Assembly: GCA_964352875.1 (NCBI GenBank)
Contig: CAYGTP010000001.1
Location: 31,471-90,703 of the forward strand
Direction: 5' to 3'
Origin: an uncultured Candidatus Saccharibacteria bacterium
Lineage (GTDB): Bacteria > Patescibacteriota > Minisyncoccia > Phycocordibacterales > UBA918
Length of the DNA stretch: 59,233 bases
Positions 8,107 through 58,677 of this stretch are shown here, piece by piece; position 1 is the first letter of the stretch; each line of letters starts with the position of its first letter. A program made the translations under genes and the position numbers. The notes beneath the pieces are model-generated. The model was not told the origin of the DNA, did not search any database, and saw only the letters and a list, made by a program, of their open reading frames with translations.

Positions 8107-8213
8107 ACCCTCGCCGCACCGTCCAAAGGACGGTGCGGCATTTACTTTTTAAAAAAATGTGCTTTAATTAAAAACAAACAGTACTTCAGTACTTCAAAAT
8201 AAAAGGAGGGACA

Positions 8214-9197
8214 ATGTCCAAAAATCACCACACTCGCTTTGGTGCGTTCATCGCCCTGGCGGGGGTGGTGGCGTACGTGCTGTGTCTCTGGGCGCCACCG
8301 ATTGTAATTGAATACCTACGTGAAGCCCAGGCATTTCTCGCCTGGCTGTGGATCGAGGTCTTCAAAGAGCAATTCTGGCAGAACGTGCTTCTGGTGGTGA
8401 GTATCTGGTTCAAGAAGTCGATTGTAAAGTCGATTATCATGGCCATTCTCACGCCGATCTTGCTCGTAGTATTTCTAGTCGCTCTCTTTGACGCCCGTGA
8501 CCGGCGTCGCATTAGGGCGTTCAAAGCCAAGCAGGTACGTCGCGCCAAGCTGTGGTACCGGTACGTGAAAGGATATTTCTACCGCACTTTTGGGTACTAC
8601 GGGATCTTCGCGCTGTTGATCTCGATCGTTACCATGGTGTGGGCCGCCTTCACGGTCAGTTGGCAAGTACTGGCTTGGCTGGTGTCGCTCGGTCCAGTGA
8701 AGCAGATTGCCATGCGACTGTACTGGGTAGTGCAGCCGCTGGTTGAACTTATCTGGCCATACGTTCAGATAATGCTGCGCAACCTCTACCACAACGTGCC
8801 GGGAGTGGCGCGAATCGTGAATGGAGTGAGTTGGCTATGGCATCGACTCATCACCGGTTGGATACCAGTCGTCTCGTACTGGCAGCGCCGGATTGGACGC
8901 CGGTTCGTACGCTTCCTGGTGCGGCAACGCTGGGTACGTGGGTACCTCCACGCCCAAGCCCGAGCGCGGATTCAAGAGATCCGTGAGGCACGACGGCTTA
9001 AGACCGAAGCGCGGATGCTCGGAATCGACCCGGATGGTGTGCCAGGACAAGGCTGGCGTGGTCGTAACTACGGTATGCGCTACGAACGGAATGCGCGTTG
9101 CGTATCCGACCGAGCCTGGGCACGGCTCATGCTTGGAGCAAACCTCAAGCCGACCCTCTGGGAAGGGGCGACCGTTTGCGGCCGCCCACCCGTCTAA
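8214..9197 (+). CDS. membrane protein with a Trp/Arg-rich C-terminal tail (327 aa), architecture like 7183-8106
   Basis: AAAGGAGGG lies upstream of the ATG. It shares a basic loop followed by an FGxYG motif and transmembrane spans with the upstream gene, and has the tail WQRRIGRRFVRFLVRQRWVRGYL. Confidence 0.75.
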   Translation: MSKNHHTRFGAFIALAGVVAYVLCLWAPPIVIEYLREAQAFLAWLWIEVFKEQFWQNVLLVVSIWFKKSIVKSIIMAILTPILLVVFLVALFDARDRRRIRAFKAKQVRRAKLWYRYVKGYFYRTFGYYGIFALLISIVTMVWAAFTVSWQVLAWLVSLGPVKQIAMRLYWVVQPLVELIWPYVQIMLRNLYHNVPGVARIVNGVSWLWHRLITGWIPVVSYWQRRIGRRFVRFLVRQRWVRGYLHAQARARIQEIREARRLKTEARMLGIDPDGVPGQGWRGRNYGMRYERNARCVSDRAWARLMLGANLKPTLWEGATVCGRPPV

Positions 9198-9338
9198 CCG
9201 CCCGGTGAAGTCTTCACTGGGCGGTTTATCTTTGACTTTTTTAAAATAAGTGCTATAATCACGGACAGCGACCGTGAGGTCAAAAAAAGAAAAAACAAGA
9301 TCTTTGCGGTCTTCACAAAACAAACTAAGGAGAACAAC

Positions 9339-11801
9339 ATGGAAGGAACTTCCGTCACTCCGGTTCCGCCGGAGCCGACCGATGACCAGCCGACGCTGGT
9401 CGGACGTTTGAAAAAAGCCGGCCGCACGACACTGCCGTTTGCGGTTAGTGGCGCCGTCGTCCTTGGGTACGTCTTCGTGCCCTACGTCGAGCAGAGCCTC
9501 AACTGGCTTACGGCCATGGGGCTGATTGGCCTCTCGTGGTTATGGGCTAATGGCTACGCCATGCCGGCCCTCTGGGGCGTTCTCCTCTACCTGGTGAACG
9601 CCATCGCCGGCTTCCGCGTGCGGACCTGGTTCTACAACATGGGCCGCGTCCGCGACGAGGCCAAGTCCAAAAACCTCGGCCGAGGTTTTCTTCACTCCAC
9701 CGTGAGTGTCAACGACTTCATCGCTGCCGCTCTTGTCGGTGTTGGCTACACCTTCTACACGATCGTCGCCACCCCGACCGAAGTCGGTGTCGCATCGCCC
9801 ACGCTGTGGGATGTGCTCACCGGTTGGCGAGCTCACCTTGAGCTCCTTGAGGTATCGGGCGGCGTACTGCTCGGTATCTGGGCAGCGCCGTGGCTCGGGC
9901 GACTTCTGCTCGGCTTTCGGTACATCGCTACACTCGGTCGTCGGGTGCACTACGAAGAGTGGCGGGTGCTTGTCTGGACGCTGCGGCAGATCGCCACGAT
10001 CTATAGCCGCCTCTACGAGTGGGGTCACCTTGACGCGAAGCTCACCGAAGAGGAGGAAGCTGCCAACCGGCAGGCTCTCGGCATCGCCCGGGTGACCATC
10101 TACCCCTTCGCGTTTGCGTACAATACGCTGCGTGGAGTCGGATGGTTTCTGTTCGGTCGCCGGGAAACCTGGAGTGGCTCGCTTTTCAAGGTACTCACCT
10201 GGATCATCATCCTCGTGGTACTGCCCTGGACGCGCGAGCTCTGGGCGCCGGTTTTGGTCAAGGTCGTTAATTTCGGCCTGTACCTACCGATCATGTCGAT
10301 GGCGATTGCTACCTTGTGGGGAGTCTACCGACTTTTCCGCTGGGTTGGTAACCTCACTCGCCAGTCGTGGATTGGTGAAGCGCTCGGTGTAACCGCCGTT
10401 GCGCTGCTGGCGATCTTCATGGCAAAGCTGGCCGATGAGGTGAACTACTACACCCACCTCTACGCTCAGCATGAGTCACTGGCAATCGTGCCGGTGAATG
10501 GGGCGACGCTGCCGGTCATGGTAGAGCCGCGGCTGTATCCGCTGGCGGTGATGCGAGACGGGATGAATGCCAAGCTCGAAGCTGGCGTCACCACGGCCTC
10601 CAATCCGGCCTATGTGTCGGTGGGTGACAAGCAGATGTGGACGGCCATGATCGACCGGCTCCACCTCATGGAGCGGTGGGCGAAACCGGCGACTGATTTG
10701 TTCGCTCTGCCGGCAACCTCGACCAGCGTGACGTTCGGGCGTGACGAAGGTCAGCGCCAGAGTGTCTGCTTCGATGCTCACCCGCAGGGTGTCGCGGGGC
10801 GAAATGTCTACACTGCCGCGCATCGTCGCTTGCCGCTCTCGCGGTTGGCCACGCACGAGCCGCACGAAATGCGGCTGATGCAGGACGATGCTGGCCGCTG
10901 GGTGCAGGTGGTTTCGTTCGGCCGGTTTGCCGGATTCCCGCGGCAGAAGAAATTCGGTGGGGTGGTCGTGATTCCCCAATGCAACCAGTACCAGCAGGTC
11001 TGGCTGCAGGGCACCTGGCTCGGCTCACTGTGGCCGGCGGGTGCTGAGGCGATTGACGACGCCATCCCTTCGATGGTCTATCGCGAACTCTTCGGTCTCG
11101 GCACGTACGTGTCACCGGAAGAGATTGCGGCTGGGAAGTTCTCCTTCCTGACGGGGAACAACCTGATTGCCGAGGCGACGGCCAGGCGGATTGCGGAAAG
11201 CTTTCGCTTCCACCGGGACGTTTGGGCGCCGTTCTCGACCAGTCGGTCGGGTGACGTGCGGATCCCAGACTCGGTCACGGACCGCAACCATATGCCGCAC
11301 TTTGGTAGGTGGGTGGGGTTGTCGGACCGATCGGAGCCAGCGATGTACGCGCATATCGCGCTGCAGCCGTGGGGCGAGGGTGACACCTTGGCCTATGATC
11401 TATGGATCCCGGCTGATGGTGCGACTGACGCCGATGGCCGACCGATTGTGTACATGCTCGATGCTACGGCGGAGGGGATGGACACGATGGACGGACCGAC
11501 GGCGGTCGCGGCCAAGGTTCGCAACGCTTTGCCGGAAGCGGTGTGGGGTCGGTTTGAGATCGCTGAGGTAACCGCCTACAAGCGGGAACTCGGCGGCTCG
11601 GTGCGATCGCTCTATTTGGCTCGATTGGTCAGTAAGAGTAATCGTGACAGCCTGGTGTTTACCAGCGATCTCCGGATGTACGTGTATGATCCGGAGTTCG
11701 CTCAGGTGCACCAACTTACCGACCCGGACGCCGGTGAGGTAGCCTGGGACGCCGAAATCCTTGCCGCCTTCGGCAAAAAGTGGGGCGTTACCCTGAAGTA
11801 A
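9339..11801 (+). CDS. large membrane protein (820 aa): N-terminal multi-transmembrane region of about 370 aa plus an unrecognised soluble domain of about 450 aa
   Basis: TAAGGAG lies upstream of the ATG. The ORF is long and uninterrupted in high-GC DNA, and a terminator follows. Confidence 0.85.
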   Translation: MEGTSVTPVPPEPTDDQPTLVGRLKKAGRTTLPFAVSGAVVLGYVFVPYVEQSLNWLTAMGLIGLSWLWANGYAMPALWGVLLYLVNAIAGFRVRTWFYNMGRVRDEAKSKNLGRGFLHSTVSVNDFIAAALVGVGYTFYTIVATPTEVGVASPTLWDVLTGWRAHLELLEVSGGVLLGIWAAPWLGRLLLGFRYIATLGRRVHYEEWRVLVWTLRQIATIYSRLYEWGHLDAKLTEEEEAANRQALGIARVTIYPFAFAYNTLRGVGWFLFGRRETWSGSLFKVLTWIIILVVLPWTRELWAPVLVKVVNFGLYLPIMSMAIATLWGVYRLFRWVGNLTRQSWIGEALGVTAVALLAIFMAKLADEVNYYTHLYAQHESLAIVPVNGATLPVMVEPRLYPLAVMRDGMNAKLEAGVTTASNPAYVSVGDKQMWTAMIDRLHLMERWAKPATDLFALPATSTSVTFGRDEGQRQSVCFDAHPQGVAGRNVYTAAHRRLPLSRLATHEPHEMRLMQDDAGRWVQVVSFGRFAGFPRQKKFGGVVVIPQCNQYQQVWLQGTWLGSLWPAGAEAIDDAIPSMVYRELFGLGTYVSPEEIAAGKFSFLTGNNLIAEATARRIAESFRFHRDVWAPFSTSRSGDVRIPDSVTDRNHMPHFGRWVGLSDRSEPAMYAHIALQPWGEGDTLAYDLWIPADGATDADGRPIVYMLDATAEGMDTMDGPTAVAAKVRNALPEAVWGRFEIAEVTAYKRELGGSVRSLYLARLVSKSNRDSLVFTSDLRMYVYDPEFAQVHQLTDPDAGEVAWDAEILAAFGKKWGVTLK

Positions 11802-11834
11802 CCCTCCACACTCTGATCTCATCGTGAGATCCGC

Positions 11835-11868
11835 GCGCGCAGCTATAATGGCTGCGCGCTTTTCTTTT
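11835..11868 (+). terminator. intrinsic terminator of the 820-aa gene
   Basis: gcgcgcagc pairs with gctgcgcgc, followed by ttttctttt. Confidence 0.8.
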
Positions 11869-11882
11869 GTAGCGGTAACTAC

Positions 11883-11917
11883 GTAAAAACGCCCACGGAA
11901 TGAGTTCCGTGGGCGTT
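11883..11917 (-). terminator. intrinsic terminator of the 11926-12675 gene
   Basis: aacgcccacggaa pairs with ttccgtgggcgtt, and a T run follows on the minus strand. Confidence 0.75.
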
Positions 11918-11925
11918 GTATTGGG

Positions 11926-12675
11926 TTAGTGTGCCTGGAGTAACGCGCCGAACTGACTCGGCAACTCCTCGAGCAGTGACCACTCATTGCCCTTGGGTGT
12001 GTCACACCCGAGCGCTGCTGTCATGTAGGCGGCTGCGTTATCAGGTAGCCCGTTGTCGCGAAGGTGCTGGAAGGTGGGAGATGTTCGAATTGCTTGCTCG
12101 ATTGCTGGACCTTTTTCGGGCAAGAATGTCGCTAACAGGTCAGCAACCGGAGCTGACTGATGACCGTCGACTGCTTGGTGGGCATAAATCAGATCCAACA
12201 GCACATCAGTTCGCTTACTTTCGCTGATACTGTCACCGGCTCGGCCGAGCAAGTAGAGGCCGAGGTATTTTTGCGCCAAATGCTCCTCGGCCGACTGTGT
12301 ACGGTGACGCCGTGATTTCAGCAGTGTTAATCCTGCCCGCAGCAGCACCGAGCGAAGTAATGACTCGATTCTCTCGTCGAGGCCAATCGTACGATTGAAG
12401 CCAGCGGCTTGTTCGGCACTGAGTGAGGCCCGAGCGGCTTTTAACTGGACCGCGAACTGCACCACGGTGCGCAAGTCAGAGGCTCCACTGAGCGACTGTA
12501 CCAGACGAATGAGATCACTCGTATTCGTGTATCGACCCAGGTCCTCACTGAGTTTGTCTGTGGTTGCTCGCACATCAAACCCATGCTGCCACAAACGGTT
12601 CAGTAGGTAAGGCGCAACAACATTGCTACCAAAAAACTTCAGTGCCAAGATGGCTGTCGTGGTAACCAGTGCCAT
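11926..12675 (-). CDS. hypothetical, mostly helical protein (249 aa)
   Basis: GGAGGG lies upstream of the ATG. The ORF is clean. No family recognised. Confidence 0.75.
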   Translation of the reverse strand: MALVTTTAILALKFFGSNVVAPYLLNRLWQHGFDVRATTDKLSEDLGRYTNTSDLIRLVQSLSGASDLRTVVQFAVQLKAARASLSAEQAAGFNRTIGLDERIESLLRSVLLRAGLTLLKSRRHRTQSAEEHLAQKYLGLYLLGRAGDSISESKRTDVLLDLIYAHQAVDGHQSAPVADLLATFLPEKGPAIEQAIRTSPTFQHLRDNGLPDNAAAYMTAALGCDTPKGNEWSLLEELPSQFGALLQAH

Positions 12676-12816
12676 AAGACCCTCCTGTTGTGTCTGTAGT
12701 CATTAAACTATAATTTTATAATTTGTAAACAACATGAGGGTTGTGGTACATGCTTCAGTAGCTGAACAAAAAACCAGCCCACGGTAATCATCGTAGGCTG
12801 GCAGAGTGCTATGGAG

Positions 12817-13008
12817 TCACTCAGGCTGTGTCTGTGTGCTGTCGAGCGGTGGTCTGGAGACCACTCCACCACGTTTGATTTCGGTCAGGGTGAGTCGCCC
12901 CGCCTCAACTACCATGCCGGCAGTCATAAGGCGAAGCAGCCACTTAGCGACCAGAGGCGTCAGTTTCGTACCCGTAGCCACGGCCACGGGGATGAGTAGC
13001 ATCGGCAT
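12817..13008 (-). CDS. small hydrophobic protein s2 (63 aa)
   Basis: I chose the internal ATG at 13008 because AAGGAG lies 7 nt upstream and the start overlaps the stop of s1 (TGAtATG). The product begins MPMLLIPVAVATGTKLTPLVAKWLL... Confidence 0.5.
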   Translation of the reverse strand: MPMLLIPVAVATGTKLTPLVAKWLLRLMTAGMVVEAGRLTLTEIKRGGVVSRPPLDSTQTQPE

Positions 13009-47745: not shown

Positions 47746-47763
47746 AGCATTAGAATATCTTAT

Positions 47764-47786
47764 TTTTGAAGGTGGTTGATTTGTAG
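47764..47786 (+). repeat. cassette junction repeat A, copy 1
   Basis: ttttGAAGGTGGTTGATTTGTag ends 5 nt from the stop of the CPBP gene. Confidence 0.8.
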
Positions 47787-47791
47787 AGATG

Positions 47792-50306: not shown

Positions 50307-50348
50307 TTGAAACGAGTGTGTGAATTTTTAAAGGTGGTTGATTTGTGG
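50307..50348 (+). repeat. cassette junction repeat A, copy 2
   Basis: ttgaaacgagtgtgtgaattttTAAAGGTGGTTGATTTGTGG lies 35 nt beyond the stop of the IMPase gene. Confidence 0.8.
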
Positions 50349-50383
50349 TGAGTGAAAGTGGACTCCACCGCAGCTCTTTGGTT

Positions 50384-51163
50384 TTAAACCATTAACTTCT
50401 CAATACTTTTATCAGAACTAATAAGTTCGTCGTAAACGTTTTGATTAGAAGCTATGAAACTGAGGTTTGTATAATCATATGACTCACTTTTGAAGTTGCG
50501 GACTATACCGCCCGCTTCTTTTACCAGGAGTGCGCCAGCGGCATAATCATAGTCTTTACCAAATCCATCATAGACAATTCGGCCTTCTGTCTTACCGCTT
50601 GCAACTAGAACAAACTCAAATCCTGAGCTTAGAGTTTGACAAAGATTTGCTCTAGAACGAATTGCCGCCAGCACTTCTTTGTTTTCTTCTTTCTTTGAGT
50701 TGATTTCGCAGTGTAGATACGCTTGCTCTAGATTTCTATTACTAACTGATATTTTCTCCTCGTTCTTATATGCTCCTTTACCTAGCTCAGCGTGGTACAT
50801 ATCATCGTTTACGAAGTCGTAAATAAGAGCAAATATAACCTCTCCTTTGTGTATTAAAGCAAGCATAGTGGTGCAAAACGGTATCCCACGAATGAAGTGC
50901 CCTGTTCCATCAATAGGGTCACTGAGCCAGAAGGTTTCACCGTCACGGTCACCACCAAATTCTTCACCAACGAATGGCACATCAGGTAATAGTGTTGCCA
51001 AATCTTCCTTCAGTTGTTGTTCAACCCGTTGGTCAATTTCTGTTACTGCGTCAGTGGAAGACGCACTTTTGTATTCCTTTACTTCAATGTTTCCAAAATG
51101 CGGCAGTGTTAAGTCTCGTGTCTTTTTGACAGCATCAATAATATCTTTAGTTGGTAATTCCAT
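50384..51163 (-). CDS. inositol monophosphatase family phosphatase
   Basis: WLSDPIDGTGHFIRGIP and the fold-typical layout are present. Confidence 0.85.
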   Translation of the reverse strand: MELPTKDIIDAVKKTRDLTLPHFGNIEVKEYKSASSTDAVTEIDQRVEQQLKEDLATLLPDVPFVGEEFGGDRDGETFWLSDPIDGTGHFIRGIPFCTTMLALIHKGEVIFALIYDFVNDDMYHAELGKGAYKNEEKISVSNRNLEQAYLHCEINSKKEENKEVLAAIRSRANLCQTLSSGFEFVLVASGKTEGRIVYDGFGKDYDYAAGALLVKEAGGIVRNFKSESYDYTNLSFIASNQNVYDELISSDKSIEKLMV

Positions 51164-51175
51164 AATTAATTAGTT

Positions 51176-51607
51176 TTAAACTTCACGTTCAATTTCAGAG
51201 AAGTACGAACCTTCTCTCATTTGTTTGAATAATCGTTGTAGTTGTGGAGTCACATCTTTTGGTATGGCGTCTTTATCAATCCATATTGCTTCGCTTGCAA
51301 GGTCAGGTTCACCTAGTGTTGGTTCGCCGGTCCACTTTTTAGCTTTAAAGTAGAAATTAGTATATTCGTCACGTAGGTAGTCAACGTGCACAAATTCTAA
51401 ATCTTCAGTTTTTACATCAACACCAGCTTCCTCCTTCACCTCTTTAATTGCTGATTCACGAACTTGATCGCCTTGGTCTACGTGCCCTGCGGGTATTGTA
51501 AGTAATCCATCAGCCCAGCCTGTATTTGCTCTTCGTAGAAAAAAGACTTTGTTGTCTTGTTCTAAAATGACAAAAACTGCGGTTCGAGTTAAATGGCGAT
51601 CTGACAT
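51176..51607 (-). CDS. NUDIX hydrolase
   Basis: The Nudix box GHVDQGDQVRESAIKEVKEEAGV is present. Confidence 0.85.
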   Translation of the reverse strand: MSDRHLTRTAVFVILEQDNKVFFLRRANTGWADGLLTIPAGHVDQGDQVRESAIKEVKEEAGVDVKTEDLEFVHVDYLRDEYTNFYFKAKKWTGEPTLGEPDLASEAIWIDKDAIPKDVTPQLQRLFKQMREGSYFSEIEREV

Positions 51608-51708
51608 AGTTGCTTAGTATACCAAAATAAAGAAGCTTACCTAGGATTGAGTAAACTGCCATATAGCGACTTATGTTTCCATGTTGGGGGCAGTTTACTC
51701 TCGGTCAG

Positions 51709-51763
51709 GACCTCTTTGATTGAAATGGAATACTCTAATTTTTTGAAGGTGGTGGACTTGTGG
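51709..51763 (+). repeat. cassette junction repeat A, copy 3 (extended form)
   Basis: The copy reads gACCTCTttgATTGAAATGGAatactctAATTTTTTGAAGGTGGTgGAcTTGTGG. A 12-bp inverted repeat lies just upstream (51654-65 and 51689-700). Confidence 0.85.
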
Positions 51764-51883
51764 TGATTTAATACCAAGTAAAATATGACACCAGCGTTTA
51801 CTTTGCTAAATAAATCAGTATAGTTCTTTTTGACCACATTTTGTGGCTGAAATGCTCATTTACAACACAGAGAGGTACATGCT

Positions 51884-52807
51884 ATGCCCCAATGGAACGC
51901 AGGAGGAGTAAAGCTCCCACACGGTCCGTATATGATCGGTGCCGGTGTCTGCAAGACACCAGCCACCACTGAGGAGTGGCTTAAGGTCGCTCCGGTCGTA
52001 TCTGGTTCATACACACCGCAGCAGCGCGATGGAAATCCAGGCAAGGTCGTCTGGCCGGACTCCCTCGAAGAAATGCTTCGCATCGGTTACGGACTCAACA
52101 GCTACGGTATGCCCAATGCGGGTTTTGCCGCGGCTGCTACCAGTTTCCTTCAGTCGCAGAAAACTGAGCAACCGCTCATCGTGAGCGTCGCTGGCTTCTC
52201 GGTCGACGACTACGTGCTCGGTGTCAGGACATTTGGCGTTGTTTCGAATGTGACTGCGATTGAGCTCAACTTTGGGTGTCCCAATACCCAAGGCGAGCAT
52301 AATACTATCGTTTCCTTCGATCCTGATACAGTCTGGCAGATCATGCTTGGGATCGGACGTCTGGAGTTGCAAAAACCCATCTGGGTCAAACTGTCTCCGT
52401 ACAGCAACCCCCAAGACCTGCAGCGGATGGCTGAAATACTCAATCACTGCGTCGGTCCTCAACCGTTGGCTGTGGTGACTTGCAATACGTTTCCGAACGC
52501 CTTTGCAGGGGAAGGATTGATCGACCCCAATAGCGGTATGGCTGGTCTCTCAGGACCGGTGATGAAGCCAATCGCGCTCGGACAAGTCAAGCAGTTTCGC
52601 ACGCATCTCGACGAGCAGATCGATATTATCGGCGTTGGTGGTGTCACCACTGGCGACGATGTCGTCGATCTCCTCGAAGCTGGCGCCCAAGCGGTGCAGA
52701 TCACGTCGCTAGCCCACTGGGCTGGTGATCCACGGCGATTCCACCAACATCTACTCATCGGTGAGCGTTCTTCGCGTCTCGTCGAATACCTCACCAACGA
52801 CGCCTGA
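51884..52807 (+). CDS. pyrD: class 1-type dihydroorotate dehydrogenase family protein
   Basis: ELNFGCPNT, GLSGPVMKPIAL and IIGVGGVTTGDD are present. Confidence 0.8.
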   Translation: MPQWNAGGVKLPHGPYMIGAGVCKTPATTEEWLKVAPVVSGSYTPQQRDGNPGKVVWPDSLEEMLRIGYGLNSYGMPNAGFAAAATSFLQSQKTEQPLIVSVAGFSVDDYVLGVRTFGVVSNVTAIELNFGCPNTQGEHNTIVSFDPDTVWQIMLGIGRLELQKPIWVKLSPYSNPQDLQRMAEILNHCVGPQPLAVVTCNTFPNAFAGEGLIDPNSGMAGLSGPVMKPIALGQVKQFRTHLDEQIDIIGVGGVTTGDDVVDLLEAGAQAVQITSLAHWAGDPRRFHQHLLIGERSSRLVEYLTNDA

Positions 52808-52820
52808 AAGGAGGCACTAA

Positions 52821-53957
52821 ATGCAAGTACTACTTCAAAAAGATTCTGAATTTCGGGAGCTTGCCCTTTTCAATCATGAATCGGGTCAAGCAATCGTTTT
52901 CAACAAGGGTCTTGTCGACATCCACTCCCACGGTCGCGACAACAATGCGGTTCTCGGGAATGGAATGACCGACATCCTTGACCATTCGGTGCGTCAATTT
53001 GGCATGGTTCTGCTCATGCCGAACCTGGCTGGTAGGGATGCGCTCATGACCTGGCGAATGGCCATCGACTACTGGGAGCGTGCAACGCGCGCCAGTGGCG
53101 TGAAGCCAGACATGATGCGCATTCTGGTTACGGTCTATCTCAATACTGACCTGACCGAAGATGACATCAAGCGCATCGCCAACGATCCACGGGTCGCCGG
53201 TATCAAGTCCTATCCGGCGCACGGCACTACCGGTGCTGAGCATGGGCTGCGGACCCCGTTTGAAGCGGCAAAGCAGCTCGAGTGGATGGAGAAGTATGGT
53301 GTGCCGCTTCTGGTTCATGGCCAGATGCGGACGCAACTCAACGGCGAGATCCTTGACGAATGGGATCGTGAACCGTATTTCTACACCGAAGTTGCTCCTG
53401 TCCTTGATGATGCTTTCCCGGAACTTCGCATTTCCTACGAGCATCTTTCGACTGGGATTGGCGCACAAACCGTGGCAGAACGGAAGGGACCAACTCAAGG
53501 CACTTTCACCATTCTTCACCTCGGCTACACCCGTACTGACGTGATGGACACCGGTGTTCGCACCGACATGGTGATGAAGCCGATGGTGCAACACGAACGT
53601 GAGCGACCCAAACTCTGGGAAGTTTTTCGGGCAGCACCTGATCGCTTCGCGCTCGGTTCTGACGATGCGTGGCATCCTATAACTGCCAAGCATACCAAAA
53701 ACTGTGCTTGTGGTGGCTGCTATGGCCCCTACCGGGTCGGCTACTACCTCGACGTATTCGAAGAAGCACAAGCGCTAGACCTCTTCGGTCGGTTCGCTTG
53801 CGTCAACGCAGCGCGCTTCTATGGCGTCGAGGTGCCAAAGAAACGCATTGAAATGCGGAAAGGTAACTACACGGTTGCTGAAATGCTGCCGTTTGGCGAC
53901 CACAAGGCGCAGCCACTCCATGCTGGTGAAAAGCGGTTTGGGTGGTACCAAGTCTAA
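52821..53957 (+). CDS. pyrC: class II (E. coli PyrC-type) dihydroorotase homolog
   Basis: The protein is collinear with PyrC landmarks: DIHSHGRD, MPNL, KSYPAHGTTG, PLLVHGQ, YEHLST, GSDDAWH and CGGCYG. Confidence 0.8.
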   Translation: MQVLLQKDSEFRELALFNHESGQAIVFNKGLVDIHSHGRDNNAVLGNGMTDILDHSVRQFGMVLLMPNLAGRDALMTWRMAIDYWERATRASGVKPDMMRILVTVYLNTDLTEDDIKRIANDPRVAGIKSYPAHGTTGAEHGLRTPFEAAKQLEWMEKYGVPLLVHGQMRTQLNGEILDEWDREPYFYTEVAPVLDDAFPELRISYEHLSTGIGAQTVAERKGPTQGTFTILHLGYTRTDVMDTGVRTDMVMKPMVQHERERPKLWEVFRAAPDRFALGSDDAWHPITAKHTKNCACGGCYGPYRVGYYLDVFEEAQALDLFGRFACVNAARFYGVEVPKKRIEMRKGNYTVAEMLPFGDHKAQPLHAGEKRFGWYQV

Positions 53958-53988
53958 GCTGTTCTTTCGGGAAGAAATATCAAGACTC

Positions 53989-54024
53989 AGGGCCTGGCGG
54001 CATGTTCGCCAGGCCTTTAATTTT
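53989..54024 (+). terminator. intrinsic terminator after the pyrC-like gene
   Basis: ggcctggcg pairs with cgccaggcc, followed by tttaatttt. Confidence 0.75.
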
Positions 54025-54037
54025 ATAAATTAATATA

Positions 54038-54139
54038 GAGGTTCTAATTTCCAAACATCTCTCCAAAATACAACAAAACGAGCCTTATAAAATAAGGCTC
54101 GTTTTGCTTCGGATTTGGTGGGAGACTTTGTACCAAGCT
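54038..54139 (+). repeat. junction repeat B, copy X (about 100 nt, with an internal hairpin)
   Basis: The copy gaggttctaatttccaaacatctctccaaaatacaacaaaacgagcc...ggctcgttttgcttcggatttggtgggagactttgtaccaagct is roughly 90% identical to 55450-55550. Confidence 0.85.
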
Positions 54140-54241
54140 GACCTAGAAATTAAGGAGAGCCTGCTCGACTATAATTTCGGAAATACTCTGGTGGTGGACC
54201 TAGAAATTAAGGAGAGCCTGCTCGACTATAATTTCGGAAAT
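54140..54241 (+). repeat. tandem direct repeat (two 45-nt units, 12-nt spacer, 57-nt period)
   Basis: gacctagaaattaaggagagcctgctcgactataatttcggaaat occurs at 54140-54184 and at 54197-54241. It lies inside the insertion that separates B from A in copy X. Confidence 0.9.
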
Positions 54242-54326
54242 TGAATGAAACAACGAGCGTAGCGATTATGTTGAATTTATGTCCCGATTTGTTCTGTCCT
54301 TGGACAAATCGCTGGACGCCTGGTAA

Positions 54327-54381
54327 AACCTCTATTATTGAAATGGAGTGTCCCAATTTTTTGAAGGTGGTTGATTTGTGG
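54327..54381 (+). repeat. cassette junction repeat A, copy 4 (extended form)
   Basis: The copy reads aACCTCTattATTGAAATGGAGTGTcccAATTTTTTGAAGGTGGTTGATTTGTGG. Confidence 0.85.
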
Positions 54382-54396
54382 TAGTCTCACTTTTAG

Positions 54397-54474
54397 TTAC
54401 GAAGCTAGTCGCCACAACTTAATCAGGTTTCCTTCAGGTTCATGAATACGAGCGAACGTGCCAACTTCAGTCAT
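54397..54474 (-). pseudogene. C-terminal remnant of a glyoxalase/VOC-family gene (25 codons)
   Basis: The translation MTEVGTFARIHEPEGNLIKLWRLAS resembles the conserved F.DPDGN.IEL end of VOC proteins. It sits directly next to junction repeat copy 4. Confidence 0.35.
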
Positions 54475-54587
54475 ACTATTTCACTTGTCTTCCTCTTCAA
54501 CAAACTTGTAGACTTTCAGAGTAATAAACCGTACTATGCAAAGTAGGAGTCGAGGCTCCTAACCTTGAACTAGAAAAGGAGAATGTC

Positions 54588-55388
54588 ATGGCTGAGGCTG
54601 CGACAACGACTGGACAGATTGATCTTTTAAATATCGAAAGGCTGGTCACAACAGACCAAATCGACCATCTCACTGAGTATAGAAAATGCTTGGTGCATGC
54701 GATGGGTTCATTCGACATCCTGCGTGTCGTGTGGGAACTGGTTGCCCAACTTCCCATGATGCAAATGCATCGCATGTATAACACGGAGGAAATTTTCAAG
54801 CTTTCAACACTTCACTTGCAGGAGCTGGGCAGAGATGCTCTAGAGCCACTCAAGGACGGTAAGCAAAAACTGATCCTGTGTCCAATCCTCTTGCCTTTGA
54901 AGCGAAAGTTTCCGGGCAAACGCTTCGTTCTTTCTAGTGAAGACAAGCCTATGGAACCTTTGAGCACTTGCGAAAAGGTAACCGAGCAGGGTGTGCTGGA
55001 GCGCATCATACTTGTCGACCGCGATGGATGTTTCCACGCGCTTGAGGGCTATTGGGAAACGATAGACGAGCACTCGTCCAGACCCCATTACGAGCATCAT
55101 GGATATAGACAGCTTAAGGAGGTTTCGCTCAGGCAGATCGAGAATGTTGATGATCTGTATCAAAGCGTCGATGGTGGCGATATGGTGCGTTTCTTCTGGC
55201 TCGCTACTAACTTCATGCGAGAAGCCTTGGATGCTACTCTGGAATCTGCCCGACGTGAATTTGAGAAAAGCGTCGGCGTGGATGGTGAAGGAGAAGAGTT
55301 GGTTCAAGAAAAGTATCTCACCATTATCCGTGCTATGAACTTGTATGGGCAGGTTTGCAGACAAGTCCACCACCGCTACGGTCGCTGA
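54588..55388 (+). CDS. hypothetical protein (266 aa)
   Basis: AAGGAG lies 7 nt upstream of the ATG. The ORF is clean and has its own terminator. No family recognised. Confidence 0.7.
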   Translation: MAEAATTTGQIDLLNIERLVTTDQIDHLTEYRKCLVHAMGSFDILRVVWELVAQLPMMQMHRMYNTEEIFKLSTLHLQELGRDALEPLKDGKQKLILCPILLPLKRKFPGKRFVLSSEDKPMEPLSTCEKVTEQGVLERIILVDRDGCFHALEGYWETIDEHSSRPHYEHHGYRQLKEVSLRQIENVDDLYQSVDGGDMVRFFWLATNFMREALDATLESARREFEKSVGVDGEGEELVQEKYLTIIRAMNLYGQVCRQVHHRYGR

Positions 55389-55410
55389 CAAGCCTTGTCG
55401 AAGAAATTGA

Positions 55411-55441
55411 AGAGTCGCGTTCGCGCGGCTCTTTCTTATTT
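55411..55441 (+). terminator. intrinsic terminator
   Basis: agagtcgcg pairs with cgcggctct, followed by ttcttattt. Confidence 0.7.
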
Positions 55442-55449
55442 AAATGTAG

Positions 55450-55607
55450 GAGGTTCCAATTTCCAAACATCTCTCCAAAATACAGCAAGACGAGCCCTAT
55501 AATTAGGGCTCGTCTTGCTTCAGATTTGGTGGAAGACTTTGTACCAAGTTAGAACCTCTTTAATTGAGATGGAGTGTGCGAGTTTTCTGAAGGTTGTTGA
55601 TTTGTGG
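55450..55607 (+). repeat. compact composite junction repeat B+A (copy Y / A copy 5)
   Basis: B occupies 55450-55550 and is followed directly by A, aACCTCTttaATTGAgATGGAGTGTgcgAgTTTTcTGAAGGTtGTTGATTTGTGG. The composite ends 2 nt from the stop of the NDT-like gene. Confidence 0.85.
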
Positions 55608-55609
55608 GA

Positions 55610-56026
55610 TTAAATCGAATTCAAAAAAGATTCAATGTCTGGGTAGTGTTCTGAGAACATCAAATATAATGTTTCAGGGTTTTCTACCTCTCCAATTATT
55701 ACCATCTTTTTACCAAGACCATATGCTACACCTGCTTCCATGTGTGCAGCCTTTCCAGCTGGTAATAACATGACAATAGTATCGGCATTTTTTAAACCAT
55801 CCATGTCAGTCTTAAAATGGTCTTGATGAACAGGATCATTCCAGAAATCTGGATGTGACTCTAGTATTTTCATCTGTTCTTCCCAAGGAATGTCTGGAAT
55901 GTCAGGGGTTGCTGGTTTGCTAAGGAAGTTGTAGCAAGTAAGTCCTTTGGCCTCGATGCCCTGTACGAGACGCAGGACATTCTTATGATTTCGCACGCGT
56001 CCAATCACCATGTAGTCAGTTTTCAT
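55610..56026 (-). CDS. nucleoside 2-deoxyribosyltransferase-like protein
   Basis: The layout fits this family (KNADTIVMLLPAGKAAHMEAGVAYGLGKKMVIIG). I prefer the start at MKTDYMVIG, which follows a TATACT box. Confidence 0.7.
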   Translation of the reverse strand: MKTDYMVIGRVRNHKNVLRLVQGIEAKGLTCYNFLSKPATPDIPDIPWEEQMKILESHPDFWNDPVHQDHFKTDMDGLKNADTIVMLLPAGKAAHMEAGVAYGLGKKMVIIGEVENPETLYLMFSEHYPDIESFLNSI

Positions 56027-56082
56027 AATCTGGAGTATAGCAAAAAACAAAAACCACCCAAGGGGTGCTTAATGTTTGACAA

Positions 56083-56234
56083 GTGGAGATAGGGAATTGG
56101 TCACGAATCACTAAGTAGATTATTTCGCTATACTCATAATCTACAAAGTGTTCTCGACCCCGACTCGGCGACAAGCACTCCCTTTGGTCGTCTTGTGTAC
56201 CGCCTCCGTCTTTCAATTCCCCCCATCCTCTCAC
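56083..56234 (+). ncRNA. structured RNA-like element R1 (unclassified, strand uncertain)
   Basis: The 5' block GTGGAGATaGGGAATTGGTCACGA is present. gggaattg pairs with caattccc across about 115 nt. An internal hairpin pairs gtagatta with taatctac. A 17-bp-class hairpin follows at 56236-56277. Confidence 0.5.
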
Positions 56235-56279
56235 AAACGCAAAGGCCGCAAAGACATATGTCTTTGCGGCCTGCGTTAT

Positions 56280-56434
56280 GTGGAGATGGGGAATTGGTCA
56301 CGAGTTACTAACTATAATTGTTCGTTTCACTCCAATTCTAGTAAGTACTCTCGACCCCAGCTCGCTCGCCTCCGGCATCGCTGCGCTTTTCAATTCCCGC
56401 ACGCAAGTGAAATTGTTCACTTGCTCATCTCCAC
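56280..56434 (+). ncRNA. structured RNA-like element R2 (tandem paralog of R1)
   Basis: tggagatg pairs with catctcca, and gggaattg with caattccc. The internal helices change sequence relative to R1 but keep their pairing. A terminator-like hairpin follows. Confidence 0.5.
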
Positions 56435-56474
56435 AAATGAAAACACTCCCCGAAGGGAGCTTTTTCATTTGTGG
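56431..56474. terminator. bidirectional terminator-like hairpin after R2
   Basis: In ccacaaatgaaaa-cactccccgaagggag-ctttttcatttgtgg, the 5' arm overlaps the 3' arm of the R2 outer helix by 4 nt. Confidence 0.6.
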
Positions 56475-56638
56475 ACCTCGATAGAAATTTATTGAACTCC
56501 ACAAAAAGCTTTATCTATCAGTGGTACCAGTATTTTAATGACCCACAGAATGCTAATTTATCTATGAATTCAGCCATTCCTGCTTAAGCATTTCAAAAAG
56601 ATAAGGTGCACCCCTAGTTAGTTAAACACTAGAAGTAA

Positions 56639-57187
56639 TTAACTAGATAAATACTCTTTCAAAAAACTTTTCTCTCGTTCGAGAATGAAATGACCCTCAA
56701 ATTTACCTGGAGTATCAGTTTCCATCTTTGCAAGTACTTCACTAGGTGGGAGCCATAAGGTTGATTGACCTTCTTCAATTTCTCCTTCCTCTAATGCTGG
56801 TTGACCAATTTCTCCAATCACTTTAGCAACAAATGCATAGGAGATATGGATCATGTTGTATTTATTTCTATACTCAATTGTGACTCCAATCGGTTTAATA
56901 AGTTCACAGTCGCATCCAACTTCTTCAAGCACCTCTCTTTTTAAAGCCTCTTCTGCAGTCTCGCCGGGATCGATACCTCCTCCAGGTAGTTTGTGATAAG
57001 TATAGGTAGATAGATATTGAGTAGCCATGTTGCCTTCATTATCCAGCAGAATAGCTCGGGCACTTTTCCGAAGAGTGTAGTTTGAGCCTAGTTGCTCAGC
57101 TTCACCTAAACCTAAAGTCTTTTCACTAATTTCGTTTAGTATTTTCATGAATATATTATTATCGTTTACCTTCCCATTCTGCGTCAA
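56639..57187 (-). CDS. NUDIX hydrolase
   Basis: The Nudix box GGGIDPGETAEEALKREVLEEVGC is present. The start is uncertain, either 57187 or the MKILNE start at 57148. Confidence 0.8.
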   Translation of the reverse strand: MTQNGKVNDNNIFMKILNEISEKTLGLGEAEQLGSNYTLRKSARAILLDNEGNMATQYLSTYTYHKLPGGGIDPGETAEEALKREVLEEVGCDCELIKPIGVTIEYRNKYNMIHISYAFVAKVIGEIGQPALEEGEIEEGQSTLWLPPSEVLAKMETDTPGKFEGHFILEREKSFLKEYLSS

Positions 57188-57815
57188 ATTGCTCTAGGTA
57201 TTGTTCCATGAACTTGTGGCGACCTTCTGCCATCTCTTTGCCAGTCTCAGTATTCATTAAATCCTTAAGGAGTAATAGTTTTTCGTAGAAGTGGTTGAGC
57301 GTTGGAGCTGTACTGTTTTTATACTCCTCTTTAGACATTGCAAGATTTGGTTTTATGTTTGGATCGTATAGTGCTCTACCTTTATGTCCTCCATAGTTAA
57401 AAGTACGAGCAATACCAATTGCTCCCACAGCATCTAGTCGATCTGCATCTTGAACCACAGCCAGCTCAGGAGACATCCATTGCTGACCTTCGATAGAACC
57501 TTTAAAAGAAATGTGTCGAACGATGTTTTCTACATGCTCAATAACGTCCTCCGGTAGTTCCAGTGAAGTGAGATAATCTCGAGCAGTTTTGGGACCAATC
57601 TCCTCATCACCATTATGAAATTTTGAGTCAGCAATGTCATGGAGTAATGCACCCAACTCAACAATTAGAGTATTCACTCCAGCTTCTTTTTCAGCTATGT
57701 GCTGAGCATTTTTCCATACTCTGTAAATGTGCCACCAGTCATGCCCACCTTCTGCTTCAGAAAGTGTTTGCTTAACAAATTCGACAGTCTTATCAACTAT
57801 TTCTTGGTTGTGCAT
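57159..57815 (-). CDS. HD-domain metal-dependent phosphohydrolase
   Basis: HDWWHIYRV and GALLHDIAD are present. Confidence 0.85.
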   Translation of the reverse strand: MHNQEIVDKTVEFVKQTLSEAEGGHDWWHIYRVWKNAQHIAEKEAGVNTLIVELGALLHDIADSKFHNGDEEIGPKTARDYLTSLELPEDVIEHVENIVRHISFKGSIEGQQWMSPELAVVQDADRLDAVGAIGIARTFNYGGHKGRALYDPNIKPNLAMSKEEYKNSTAPTLNHFYEKLLLLKDLMNTETGKEMAEGRHKFMEQYLEQFDAEWEGKR

Positions 57816-57819
57816 AAAA

Positions 57820-58350
57820 TTATTTATATAAATCAGGTTTAATAAATGGTATTAGAGCAAATACTATTGCATCTCTATAAAAATCTTTACGAGTTATAGC
57901 CTCATTAGTTAGAACTCCAATTGTGCCGCCCTTGTGTTTGGAATTCGTCTCATCGAAAGCGATGTCAGTGGCAATACCGAGCTCTTCTCCCTTATCAATT
58001 AGCTCGCTTACTCTATCAGGTAATAAAAATGAACCTGTGCGTCCAAAACCAGCTTTACCGTTCTTTCCTAAGATACTCATCCATGCGAATGCCCAATACT
58101 CACCTTCAATCTTTTCTAGTCCTCCCTCTAATCCTACGTAAAAATCTGCTTTCGGATATTCCACCTTGCAAGCCTCTGCCCGGTTTGCAGCTCCTTGTTT
58201 TGTTTCCTCTTGACCCATTGGTTGGTCAGGAACACCTGATGAGGCTGAGAAGGTGATAAATTCTAATTCTTCACCAGGAAAAGCTAACGCAAACGCCTCT
58301 TTTGTAGTTTCTAATTTAACTGGGTTATTTGATCCAACAATGATTTGCAT
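57820..58350 (-). CDS. non-canonical purine NTP phosphatase (YjjX/DUF84-type inosine/xanthosine triphosphatase)
   Basis: MQIIVGSNNPVKLETTKEAF...GVPDQPMG is typical of the family. Confidence 0.8.
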   Translation of the reverse strand: MQIIVGSNNPVKLETTKEAFALAFPGEELEFITFSASSGVPDQPMGQEETKQGAANRAEACKVEYPKADFYVGLEGGLEKIEGEYWAFAWMSILGKNGKAGFGRTGSFLLPDRVSELIDKGEELGIATDIAFDETNSKHKGGTIGVLTNEAITRKDFYRDAIVFALIPFIKPDLYK

Positions 58351-58353
58351 AAT

Positions 58354-58677
58354 TTATTCAAAATCTAATAATGGAAATACATCTAAAGCTACTTCTTCGT
58401 ATGGATGGTTATCCTTGAGGACTTGTTTGAGCAGGGGGAGTTGGTCCTTTGTGCACACAAATTCAATTACTACCTCAGCTACTTCTTCTAGCTTACCAGC
58501 TTCTCCAATATGCGGATTAGCTTCAGCATTTGGCATAAAATAGCCTTTTCCTCGAGTCACAAAGCTACAATGGCTATAGTTGCCTATTTTTCCTATTCCT
58601 GCGTCACCTATAGCCATTCTGACCCTTTCGGAGTCGTTTTCAGGGCATGTTAGCCAAACTTTTACTCGTTCTTGCAT
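58354..58677 (-). CDS. COG3323-type (NIF3-associated, PII-like fold) small protein
   Basis: IGNYSHCSF, GKLEEVAEVVIEFVC and HPYEEVALDVFPL are present. Confidence 0.7.
   Translation of the reverse strand: MQERVKVWLTCPENDSERVRMAIGDAGIGKIGNYSHCSFVTRGKGYFMPNAEANPHIGEAGKLEEVAEVVIEFVCTKDQLPLLKQVLKDNHPYEEVALDVFPLLDFE

Follow-up and report, generated by a model that had tools for sequence, protein, structure and literature searches.

The window analysed here is a 59,233-nucleotide stretch of DNA from an uncultured Candidatus Saccharibacteria bacterium. It contains two tandem repeats of about 150 nt, R1 and R2, at the positions where an initial annotation of the sequence had placed them, next to an NDT-like gene (55610-56027). 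Along the minus strand the order is unit, terminator, unit, terminator, NDT-like gene. A third member of the same family follows the ribosomal-protein gene rplE elsewhere in the window. The features are given below, with R1 and R2 in minus-strand order; loci elsewhere that carry homologues are designated by L numbers.

56476-56507, minus strand: decayed tmRNA 3' fragment, GTGGAGTTCAATAAATTTCTATCGAGGTCCAC, upstream of the R2 unit (read from the sequence); GGAGTTCAAT and TCCAC are in common with the tmRNA ends of L086 and L105
56431-56474, unstranded: long terminator-like hairpin with A and U tracts, opening the R2 unit (terminator site 56445-56460; terminator scan of both strands, fold)
56426-56434, minus strand: A'a of R2, GTGGAGATG, which complements the acceptor-end part of the tail and forms the outer helix; this arrangement recurs in L043, L086 and L117
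56403-56424, minus strand: small hairpin between A'a and P1 of R2 (fold, comparison of homologues); its equivalent in most homologues has a conserved CUGC loop and a covarying stem
56276-56410, minus strand: R2 core unit, consisting of P1, P2 with a tandem G.A internal loop and the long irregular hairpin P3 (covariance model, alignment, pair counts)
56398-56391 and 56296-56289, minus strand: 5' and 3' strands of R2 P1
56280-56296, minus strand: R2 tail, CAATTCCCCATCTCCAC, a copy of the tmRNA 3' end from T loop to acceptor end (compared with real tmRNA ends), which doubles as the A segment of the next unit, R1
56243-56272, unstranded: inter-unit terminator-like hairpin, opening the R1 unit (terminator scan)
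56224-56234, minus strand: A'a of R1, GTGAGAGGATG, which complements the tmRNA end imperfectly (sequence)
56079-56232, minus strand: R1 core unit, with a longer P2 insert (covariance model)
56221-56214 and 56099-56092, minus strand: 5' and 3' strands of R1 P1
56083-56099, minus strand: R1 tail, CAATTCCCTATCTCCAC, a second copy of the tmRNA 3' end (sequence comparison)
56055-56067, minus strand: terminator-like hairpin with a T run, between R1 and the NDT-like gene (ATG at 56027; terminator scan)
55450-55548, repeated at 54038-54137, unstranded: core-less module of tmRNA-like end, hairpin and complement (repeat families D5 and D6, 90-92% identity)
3923-4471: rplE (Pfam L5 domains)
4498-4632, plus strand: third, divergent family member with a shortened P3, directly after rplE (covariance model, 39 bits, E ~1e-8)
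4611-4649, plus strand: displaced, diverged duplicate of the rplE 3' end, encoding LPLQKPEVAEAE and a stop against GLPLKKEEVTE and a stop in the gene itself (translations)

A structured element on the minus strand

The sequence blocks quoted as common to R1 and R2 are present in both, with 76% identity over the first 85 nt (repeat family D3) and a mean column identity of 77% in the pairwise alignment. The helices listed for them are also real and covarying: in an alignment of 98 homologues, from which a covariance model was built, 29 of the 38 pairs show compensatory changes and 91.2% of the cells are paired, whereas shuffles reach 75.3% and sliding the partners leaves 30-40%. P1 is the helix gggaattg/caattccc of both repeats; lower P3 is gagttac/gtactc in R2 and gaatcac/gtgttc in R1; upper P3 is ctataattg/caattctag in R2 and gtagatta/taatctac in R1; and tggagatg/catctcca is the outer helix in R2. 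Helices that had been described as identical in the two repeats are a target-derived address rather than part of the scaffold, and they differ in homologues located beside other genes.

The folded strand of R1 and R2 is the minus strand of the window. Among pairs across the 98 homologues there are 2768 Watson-Crick, 185 G-U and 25 A-C combinations, and one G.U pair, retained in 93 of the 98 sequences, would become an A.C mismatch on the plus strand. The covariance model recovers R2 at 56276-56410 with 126 bits (E 3e-32) and R1 at 56079-56232 with 111 bits (E 3e-28) on the minus strand, but yields only 21 and 13 bits on the plus strand. Compensatory changes for a common fold, together with a G-U bias on one strand, are what a structured RNA would generally display. 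The plus-strand RNA proposed in the initial annotation thus appears scarcely credible, although the plus strand of the repeats does fold better than its shuffles (-42.9 and -43.1 kcal/mol, z -4.2 and -3.2): each repeat surpasses shuffled sequences on both strands, with the minus strand performing better (-57.2 and -56.1 kcal/mol, z -5.8). Since the fold lies on the minus strand, the strong hairpins previously said to follow each element, which are indeed there and terminator-like, instead precede the units.

No family in Rfam 15 matched the repeats, in agreement with the earlier failure to assign them to a known RNA. A scan of the whole window gave no match, a search across 55900-56700 at E up to 10 returned chance-level matches only, and a scan of 20 homologous loci detected only the neighbouring tRNA and tmRNA genes. 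Neither ARAGORN nor Rfam found a complete tRNA or tmRNA in the window, where tmRNA is represented only by its last ~17 nt, in the form of the tail. A hammerhead or other self-cleaving ribozyme core was rejected, given that the junction sequences misfit by eye and Rfam gave no match, and no description of the element was found in the literature searched.

The copied gene end and its complement

The initial annotation could not fit tmRNA to the repeats. On the minus strand, each unit has a 3' tail, CAATTCCC[C/T]ATCTCCAC, that copies the tmRNA 3' end, and the 5' strand of P1 together with the outer helix is complementary to it. The reference for the R2 tail was a set of real tmRNA 3' ends located just upstream of homologues in L086, L091, L105 and L069, where the tmRNA genes were confirmed by Rfam. 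Across the family, the polarity and the logic of copy and anti-copy are the same: the gene 3' end (A) is followed by a terminator-like hairpin, a complement (A'), a three-way-junction core and a second A. A comprises the last ~19-22 nt of the target gene (T54 to C72 in the case of tRNA), and A' is its exact complement, sometimes split by the small CUGC-loop hairpin. The hairpin between A and A' resembles a real terminator and would limit read-through transcription of the core. Within the core, P1 is closed by A' and the next A, P2 carries the tandem G.A pairs, and the long irregular P3 ends in a GGAGC-loop-GCGAAC tip; the unpaired nucleotides are highly conserved. The target-matched variable segments are the two strands of P1 and of P0, the latter formed by A' with the gene's own 3' end, while the internal loops of P2 and P3 are among the conserved parts.

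The targets are the ends of ~16 tRNA species, tmRNA, ftsZ and rplE. Extra copies of the 3' end were found for 45 tRNAs, with tails identical to the neighbouring tRNA 3' end over up to 22 nt, although often stopping abruptly after 6-8 nt. In one subfamily, which has the same hairpin ends and core beside tRNAs Arg, Ala, Gly and Glu, A' shows 0-1 mismatch in 19 to the adjacent tRNA, and in 'class B' units A' covaries with the variable bases of the trailer. Members associated with ftsZ have a second, synonymously diverged copy of its last 12 codons and stop codon, and the third copy in our window likewise repeats the last codons of rplE in diverged form. The inserted DNA is thus flanked by a direct repeat of the gene 3' end, as in integrase-type islands. 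Readings of the unit as a mimic of tRNA, or as a site where mature tRNA would bind as a primer, were rejected because A' pairs with the genomic trailer and not with CCA and leaves no free acceptor overhang, and because the ends of ftsZ and rplE are handled alike.

Even beside decayed tails, A' has kept its full complementarity to the in-gene A, and in 38 of 59 cases its run is the longer one. This speaks for a role at the site itself, for instance through an RNA or DNA hairpin formed with the end of its own gene, in addition to any historical footprint. P0 and P1 are mutually exclusive by sequence, and one alternative builds on this property: the unit would be a cis-acting 3'-trailer RNA switch, in which A' would pair with either the end of its own gene, giving P0, or the copy further downstream, giving P1. 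Full complementarity beside decayed tails, covariation of the trailer bases in class B units, the conserved unpaired core nucleotides and the invariable orientation of units with the upstream gene are all compatible with such a switch. Nevertheless, a terminator-like hairpin separates the gene from A', unrelated protein genes are among the targets, and regulation needs neither identical tandem copies nor truncated copies nor displaced duplicate gene ends. Orthologous regulators would also be expected to cluster by tRNA identity, whereas similarity among the cores follows neither tRNA identity nor contig. Copies on one contig average 61% identity over the P2-P3 columns, no closer than those on different contigs (~60%), and orthology by tRNA type was dismissed, as the tRNA label agreed between nearest neighbours in only 4 of 52 cases, roughly the chance level. 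We therefore regard as possible but unlikely such a switch, in which a ligand or protein bound to the core would choose between P0 and P1 and thereby govern how the tRNA, tmRNA or mRNA is terminated or processed at its 3' end, or how stable it is.

Distribution, neighbouring genes and cargo

In Patescibacteria metagenomes the family occurs on at least 120 contigs (178 nhmmer matches), and among the reference-genome (GTDB) loci fetched it was present in 3 of 34, from two Kaiserbacteria and one 'Patescibacteria group' assembly. IMG/VR and phage records gave 0 matches, no free or viral copy was found, and a phage- or plasmid-borne attP was rejected on the basis of these two collections. The position of the units follows the upstream gene: 76 units have a tRNA or tmRNA gene in their own orientation within 300 nt upstream, and none has one on the opposite strand; within 400 nt, a co-oriented one precedes 85 of the 143 matches with enough flank, usually at a gap of 44-88 nt. 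The downstream gene shares the strand of the unit in 70 cases and is opposite to it in 60, and terminator-like sites on that side have no strand bias (33 vs 31). A Pfam scan of 145 neighbouring ORFs matched 97 families, the commonest being NUDIX (5) and FtsZ (4), the latter representing the upstream target. Among these ORFs there was no conserved protein partner, no enrichment of recombinases, transposases or reverse transcriptases, and no integrase among the families matching at least 2 ORFs.

These statistics bear directly on the NDT-like gene. Its protein had been suggested as a possible conserved partner of the element, a suggestion which did not hold up, as there is neither conserved synteny nor a shared neighbour family. 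It is also very improbable that R1 and R2 are tandem riboswitches, or a minus-strand 5' leader, controlling the gene by termination. The minus-strand order in the window would suit this role, and in L005, too, a unit lies upstream of an NDT homologue; but the element is absent from most loci of NDT homologues, the downstream gene is co-oriented hardly more often than not, the downstream terminator-like sites are unbiased, and it is the upstream gene that sets the position of the unit. With respect to tandem riboswitches and other cis-regulatory RNAs in general, the units share a three-way junction with conserved junction nucleotides, alternative pairings, terminator-like hairpins and a tandem layout, but differ in their upstream-determined position, their duplicated gene ends and identical tandem copies, and in having no conserved regulated gene. 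As the units are placed neither preferentially upstream of a co-oriented gene nor in front of a conserved downstream family, the riboswitch was rejected on orientation, downstream genes and synteny alike, and the R1/R2 family is not a riboswitch.

Units form arrays and enclose other genes. L050 carries five identical units with a 136-nt period, and L135, L120 and L050 contain mixed arrays with other core types. In L097, an EcoRV-type restriction-modification cassette is located between two units which share an identical ~95-nt left part. No integrase was found in the L097 cargo island or among the 30 window ORFs scanned, and no occupied-versus-empty pair of otherwise identical loci was recovered. 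Within the window, R1 and R2 are part of a repeat system tied to the cassette-like organisation of the region, as had been proposed. Their likeness to the repeats labelled A and B at the cassette junctions is weak in sequence (z up to 2.7 for 54038-54137 and 55450-55548, ~0 for the 55550-55610 type; z ~2.6 for 55450-55548 against the left part of R1), but the first pair has the same architecture of tmRNA-like end, hairpin and complement. The idea that the cassette junctions are truncated copies of the element is accordingly retained for 54038-54137 and 55450-55548, on architectural grounds, and not for the others.

Relation to known systems and interpretation

Integrative elements that use tRNA and tmRNA 3' ends are known for their attL/attR duplications (Williams 2002, as cited in PMC9897764) and, according to PMC9897764, leave tRNA-gene fragments as footprints, both of which are reminiscent of our units. 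Further parallels are the direct repeat of the gene 3' end, with the element supplying a replacement end, a crossover placed at the T loop or acceptor end, the accretion of tandem copies and the presence of cargo genes. Unlike these elements, the units are only 135-250 nt long, have no integrase nearby, and contain an inverted target copy (A') and a conserved, covarying three-way-junction core. Moreover, an integrase lineage is normally confined to one site, but a single unit scaffold is found at ~16 tRNA species, tmRNA, ftsZ and rplE.

By analogy with integron attC and CTX-phage attP, the units might be folded single-stranded DNA recombination sites. The A'/A stem would then mimic a double-stranded target, the core would be the variable structure recognised by a protein, and a single strand exchange followed by replication would yield A, hairpin, A', body, A. 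That order of target copy, spacer, inverted copy, body and target copy is the one predicted for hairpin-mediated single-strand integration, as deduced from the CTX and integron mechanism. As in attC, structure is conserved over sequence with a bias to one strand and G.T pairs are tolerated; the tandem arrays and bracketed cargo cassettes, and the abrupt break of the tails after ~7 nt, also speak for such a site. However, neither an integron-type nor any other tyrosine recombinase was seen nearby, IMG/VR and phage records yielded no phage or single-stranded replicon with the element, and conserved unpaired bases are numerous and, like the G.A motifs, more usual in RNA. Unlike in attC and CTX attP, the stem sequence changes with the target gene. 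Of the integron features, no integrase was found and neither IntI/attI nor a Xer/dif site was seen, and the genes of the window array are on both strands rather than co-oriented. Such a site is therefore an unlikely explanation, somewhat more so than the cis-acting switch, in its overall form as in the roles it assigns to stem, core and strand exchange.

Comparison with IS110/IS1111 elements is prompted by L050, L058, L155, L156 and L157, in which an IS110-family recombinase gene (PF01548 and PF02371) lies between the unit halves. IS110 enzymes are known RNA-programmed recombinases (PMC12045711), and their bridge RNAs, like our units, combine a conserved non-coding scaffold with short programmable target-matching segments. 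The units could accordingly represent the guide (bridge or seek) RNA and the ends of such elements, with most copies being miniature derivatives devoid of the recombinase gene. Yet the recombinase segment is a self-contained ~1.34-kb IS, which has ends of its own and ~230 nt of 3' non-coding sequence and whose CG/TG core is duplicated; it also assembles as ~1.3-kb contigs and occupies non-unit sites containing GATTCGAA. This indicates that the A'/core junction serves as a target of an independent IS which inserts into units. In addition, the address of the units appears to reside in helix strands of 7-19 nt and not in two internal loops as in bridge RNAs, and almost no unit adjoins a recombinase, the exceptions involving a single IS lineage. 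The bridge-RNA explanation is thus improbable, and we rejected it.

A role as IS landing pads recalls another class of repeats. REP sequences are reported targets of IS621-type IS110 elements, and, like REP/BIME elements and MITEs, the units are short, structured, intergenic, multi-copy and located downstream of genes. They differ in having neither terminal inverted repeats nor a fixed target-site duplication: the flanking repeat ranges from 4 to >36 nt and equals the end of the neighbouring gene, to which each copy is matched, and the copies are not near-identical.

Collectively, these comparisons lead us to favour, tentatively, the view that R1 and R2 are tandem minus-strand units of non-autonomous insertion or cassette modules that carry an address and target the 3' ends of genes that are conserved and highly expressed. 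Under this model, A' and A would act as the address, and an in-gene copy of A would travel with the unit. The old gene end would be pushed downstream and decay, save for the ~7 nt that keep P1 closed. Each insertion would recreate the target end, so that tandem stacks such as R2-R1 can build up and cargo genes can become enclosed between units. Transcription running on from the upstream gene would most likely supply the core as RNA, and a factor encoded elsewhere would recognise it. A more specific and considerably less probable version is a homology-addressed insertion system, in which an RNA or single-stranded DNA core scaffold with an exchangeable ~19-nt A'/A helix would direct the module and its attached cassette to the 3' end of a chosen conserved gene, rebuilding that end; the unlinked enzyme would be either a host enzyme or a relative of the IS110-type recombinases.

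Read as conservatively as possible, R1 and R2 belong to a large, well-supported family of structured elements absent from Rfam. Patescibacteria have small genomes that are generally held to be poor in mobile DNA. If the units are as they appear, these organisms possess a widespread means of storing and stacking cassettes where tRNA, tmRNA, ftsZ and ribosomal-protein genes end, the cassettes seen so far encoding nucleotide-salvage enzymes, NUDIX hydrolases and a restriction-modification system. The family also accounts, even on the conservative reading, for many stray tRNA and tmRNA 3' fragments and for the tandem intergenic repeats in Patescibacteria genomes. With one scaffold whose 19-nt address is fitted to each of ~20 genes, how the address is written and which enzyme reads it become testable, and the reading of an address is what made IS110 bridge RNAs interesting for genome engineering. 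Should the homology-addressed version be true, it would represent a natural programmable platform for cassette acquisition in Patescibacteria, distinct from integrons, CRISPR-associated transposons and bridge-RNA elements.

Fold, strand and relatives of R1 and R2

The two tandem repeats of about 150 nt, R1 and R2, are present as initially annotated, with the quoted shared blocks found in both. They lie in cellular genome DNA, the window encoding SecY, phosphoketolase and ribosomal protein L5.

Features of the window discussed in the text
4498-4632, plus strand: third, divergent family member, directly after rplE (covariance model, 39 bits)
54038-54137 and 55450-55548: core-less junction repeats, with a tmRNA-like end, a hairpin and a complement but no core
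55610-56027, minus strand: NDT-like gene flanking R1/R2
56083-56234: R1
56280-56434: R2
56639-57187, minus strand: NUDIX gene flanking R1/R2

Both strands of the intergenic region with R1 and R2 fold far better than shuffled sequences (z about -11 to -12). Single repeats reach -57.2 and -56.1 kcal/mol on the minus strand (z -5.8) and, more weakly, -42.9 and -43.1 kcal/mol on the plus strand (z -4.2 and -3.2). Across the window, Rfam at gathering thresholds gave no match and ARAGORN no tRNA or tmRNA; a permissive Rfam scan of the R1/R2 region returned chance-level matches only, and no description of the unit family was found in the literature searched. A degenerate pattern made from the most conserved stretch, GAAMNNNTNTNNTTAGTRAYTYGTGACC, matches at least 120 metagenome contigs, and a profile search yielded 178 matches, several per contig in many contigs. 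The same degenerate pattern gave 0 matches in the viral contigs searched, and R2 matched none of the phage records.

An alignment of 98 distinct family members (A5) supports a three-way junction of helices P1, P2 and P3. P2 has at its base a conserved 5'-G/C-GA...GA-3' tandem G.A loop, and the long, irregular P3 contains conserved U.U and G.A mismatches and carries at its apex a GGAGC-loop-GCGAAC module, the 2-3-bp stem of which covaries. Pairing cells amount to 91.2% in this alignment, compared with 75.3% when shuffled and 30-40% with partners slid; both sides change in 29 of the 38 pairs, and the covariation score is 0.441 versus 0.173. In the RNAalifold prediction, the pairs of P2 and P3 comprise 2768 Watson-Crick, 185 G-U and 25 A-C cells, and 93 of the 98 sequences have G.U at one particular pair, which the opposite strand would read as A.C. 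A covariance model derived from this fold scores R2 and R1 at 126 and 111 bits on the minus strand, against 21 and 13 bits for the plus-strand readings. Given these scores, the G-U excess and the near-invariant G.U pair, the helices proposed in the initial annotation were right but were assigned to the wrong strand. A plus-strand RNA, contradicted by specific tests, is the least probable of the readings considered here.

Along the minus strand, a terminator-like hairpin, R2, a hairpin, R1, a terminator and the NDT-like gene follow one another, an order that at first suggested tandem riboswitches. Close homologues of the NDT-like protein carry the source labels Kaiserbacteria, Pacebacteria and Patescibacteria group, which makes the Patescibacteria the most probable origin of the window; the gene's neighbours are not conserved among its relatives, and among loci encoding NDT homologues, L005, L006 and L007 hold four element copies whose position relative to the NDT gene is mixed. 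A riboswitch for the NDT-like gene is contradicted by specific tests and retains very little probability. Across the family, a 5' leader was rejected because the orientation of the next downstream gene is mixed, with 70 genes on the same strand as the element and 60 on the other.

Copies and complements of gene ends

Of the 156 anchored units, 76 have a co-oriented tRNA or tmRNA gene in the 300 nt before them, and no opposite-strand tRNA precedes any of the 156. Within 400 nt, co-oriented tRNA or tmRNA genes precede 85 of the 143 matches with enough flank, usually at a gap of 44-88 nt, and these upstream genes were verified by Rfam. Upstream regions follow a fixed grammar: the 3' end of the gene (A), a long terminator-like hairpin, the complement of A (A'), the core and a second A, the tail; in some units a small CUGC-loop hairpin interrupts A'. 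Past a conserved ...GTGAC, the tail reproduces the neighbouring tRNA from T-loop C56, identical up to 22 nt. In one subfamily, shared hairpin ends and a shared core stand beside tRNAs Arg, Ala, Gly and Glu, and A' complements T54-C72 of its own tRNA with 0-1 mismatch in 19. In a second class, the address is limited to the final ~4 nt of the tRNA and a variable trailer, whose bases covary with A'.

The tails of R1 and R2, CAATTCCC(C/T)ATCTCCAC, are the tmRNA 3' end, which recurs in L086, L091, L105 and L069, each with a real tmRNA gene just upstream. Since R1 and R2 carry this end, the identical long-range helix and the paired ends of the initial annotation are the address, a copy of the tmRNA end and its complement, rather than scaffold.

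Protein-coding genes are also preceding neighbours. Six family members follow ftsZ, and their tails hold a second copy of its last 12 codons and stop codon, synonymously diverged; A' fits the in-gene end better than the displaced one. The tail of the rplE-adjacent unit (to 4649, plus strand) translates as LPLQKPEVAEAE*, a divergent second version of the rplE end GLPLKKEEVTE*. In the 59 units next to a tRNA, A' is exactly complementary over a median of 11 nt and the tail identical over a median of 7, with the A' run longer in 38; many tails stop abruptly after 6-8 nt, just sufficient for P1 closure. On the simplest reading, a unit would bring a replacement gene end on arrival, and the displaced old end would then decay save where P1 requires its bases. 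The main rival, an RNA switch acting in cis within the 3' trailer, accounts for A' staying perfectly matched to the in-gene end but leaves duplicate gene ends, identical tandem copies and the absence of tRNA clustering unexplained, and we consider it unlikely.

A recurring pseudo-end, ...AAAGnGTTCTAACnT...(C)CAC, often precedes units without a real upstream tRNA (L046, L007, L099, L106, L151, L152 and L155) and occurs at 55521-55560 of the window. It may represent either a degenerate tRNA-like end or an opposite-strand promoter.

Cassette junctions and surroundings in the window

The proposed link of R1 and R2 to the cassette junctions holds only in part: the core-less repeats at 54038-54137 and 55450-55548 share the architecture, with weak sequence similarity to the left part of R1 (z about 2.6), whereas repeats of the 55550-55610 type show no sequence similarity to it. 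Sites between cassette-like genes (47762-47789, 50324-50351, 51706-51766, 54324-54384 and 55550-55610) carry copies of the junction repeat ...ACCTCTnTnATTGAAATGGAG...TTTTTTGAAGGTGGTTGATTTGTGG, which is not significantly similar to either R1 or R2; its minus-strand start, CCACAAATCAACC, looks like the gene end and hairpin start seen in units elsewhere. One cassette junction contains two perfectly identical 45-nt direct repeats (GACCTAGAAATTAAGGAGAGCCTGCTCGACTATAATTTCGGAAAT) at 54140-54184 and 54197-54241, 57 nt apart.

A nucleotide-metabolism gene cluster surrounds the units at 50384-58677 (inositol monophosphatase family, two NUDIX genes, dihydroorotate dehydrogenase, the NDT-like gene, an HD-domain gene and a DUF84 NTPase). 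At about 5000-13000, starting just past the third unit, GC content is 52-61% compared with about 38-50% elsewhere, and the large ORFs there (4989-6248, minus; 6369-7106, 7183-8106, 8214-9197 and 9339-11801, plus; 11926-12675, minus) have no Pfam match; this stretch looks like foreign DNA.

Arrays, cargo and the nature of the units

Downstream of the tRNA-Asp locus in L050 (4047-4697, minus strand), five identical type-1 units are arranged head to tail with a 136-nt period, each consisting of the small CUGC hairpin, P1 and core only; L058 shows this too. Two to four units follow tRNAs in L135, L120, L050 and L065, each closed by a tRNA-end copy. Some of these arrays contain a "type-2" core ending ...GGGGTACTGAAnnnGTAAnnnTTCGA (also given as ...CCAATTGGGGTACTGAAnnnGTAAnnnTTCGA), found in L135, L120, L007, L005, L139, L150 and other loci, which shares the GGAGC-loop-GCGAAC tip with type-1 cores and obeys the same grammar of gene end, hairpin, complement, core and gene end. 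At a tRNA-Ala locus (L097, 311-4502), a DUF5655 gene, an EcoRV-type restriction endonuclease and a D12 adenine methylase lie between two units with an identical left part of ~95 nt; this cargo is edged by ~70-bp inverted repeats and contains no integrase. Core similarity is grouped neither by tRNA identity (in 4 of 52 cases the nearest core has the same label) nor by contig. Arrays, alternative cores, cargo, the non-conserved NDT neighbours and this lack of clustering are more in keeping with a module that moves or duplicates than with a regulator passed on vertically.

An attC/CTX-like site made of folded single-stranded DNA predicts the order of parts as observed but is left without a recombinase, and appears quite unlikely. 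Pfam scans of 145 neighbouring ORFs showed no enrichment of recombinases, transposases or reverse transcriptases, and the 30 window ORFs scanned include no recombinase. In L050 (5089-6168, minus strand) and L058 (561-1640), the two halves of a unit are separated by an IS110-family recombinase gene (PF01548 and PF02371), whose numerous homologues are on ~1.3-kb contigs. Comparison of 22 further loci (L155-L176) delimits a self-contained IS of about 1.34 kb with ends CCACCATAGAACCC... and ...GGGGTTCTATAGA and a duplicated CG/TG core. Its insertion point, GGATT-CG-AA, lies exactly where A' meets the core of the units and is complementary to the tRNA T loop, and the IS also occurs at a non-unit site bearing this motif; its ~230-nt 3' non-coding region presumably carries its own guide RNA. 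From these sequence comparisons we conclude that the units serve this IS as landing pads; as a mobiliser of the units it is a candidate at most. That they are themselves an IS110 guide RNA is contradicted by specific tests and highly unlikely.

The 3' ends of tRNA and tmRNA genes are well-established integration sites, of which stray tRNA fragments are footprints (PMC9897764). Unlike in those systems, the units described here are very small, lack a linked recombinase, carry an inverted address and have a conserved, covarying core common to about 20 target genes. We tentatively favor the view that they are insertion or cassette modules that carry an address and sit at the 3' ends of genes; their core would act as a folded RNA, or possibly single-stranded DNA, recognised in trans.
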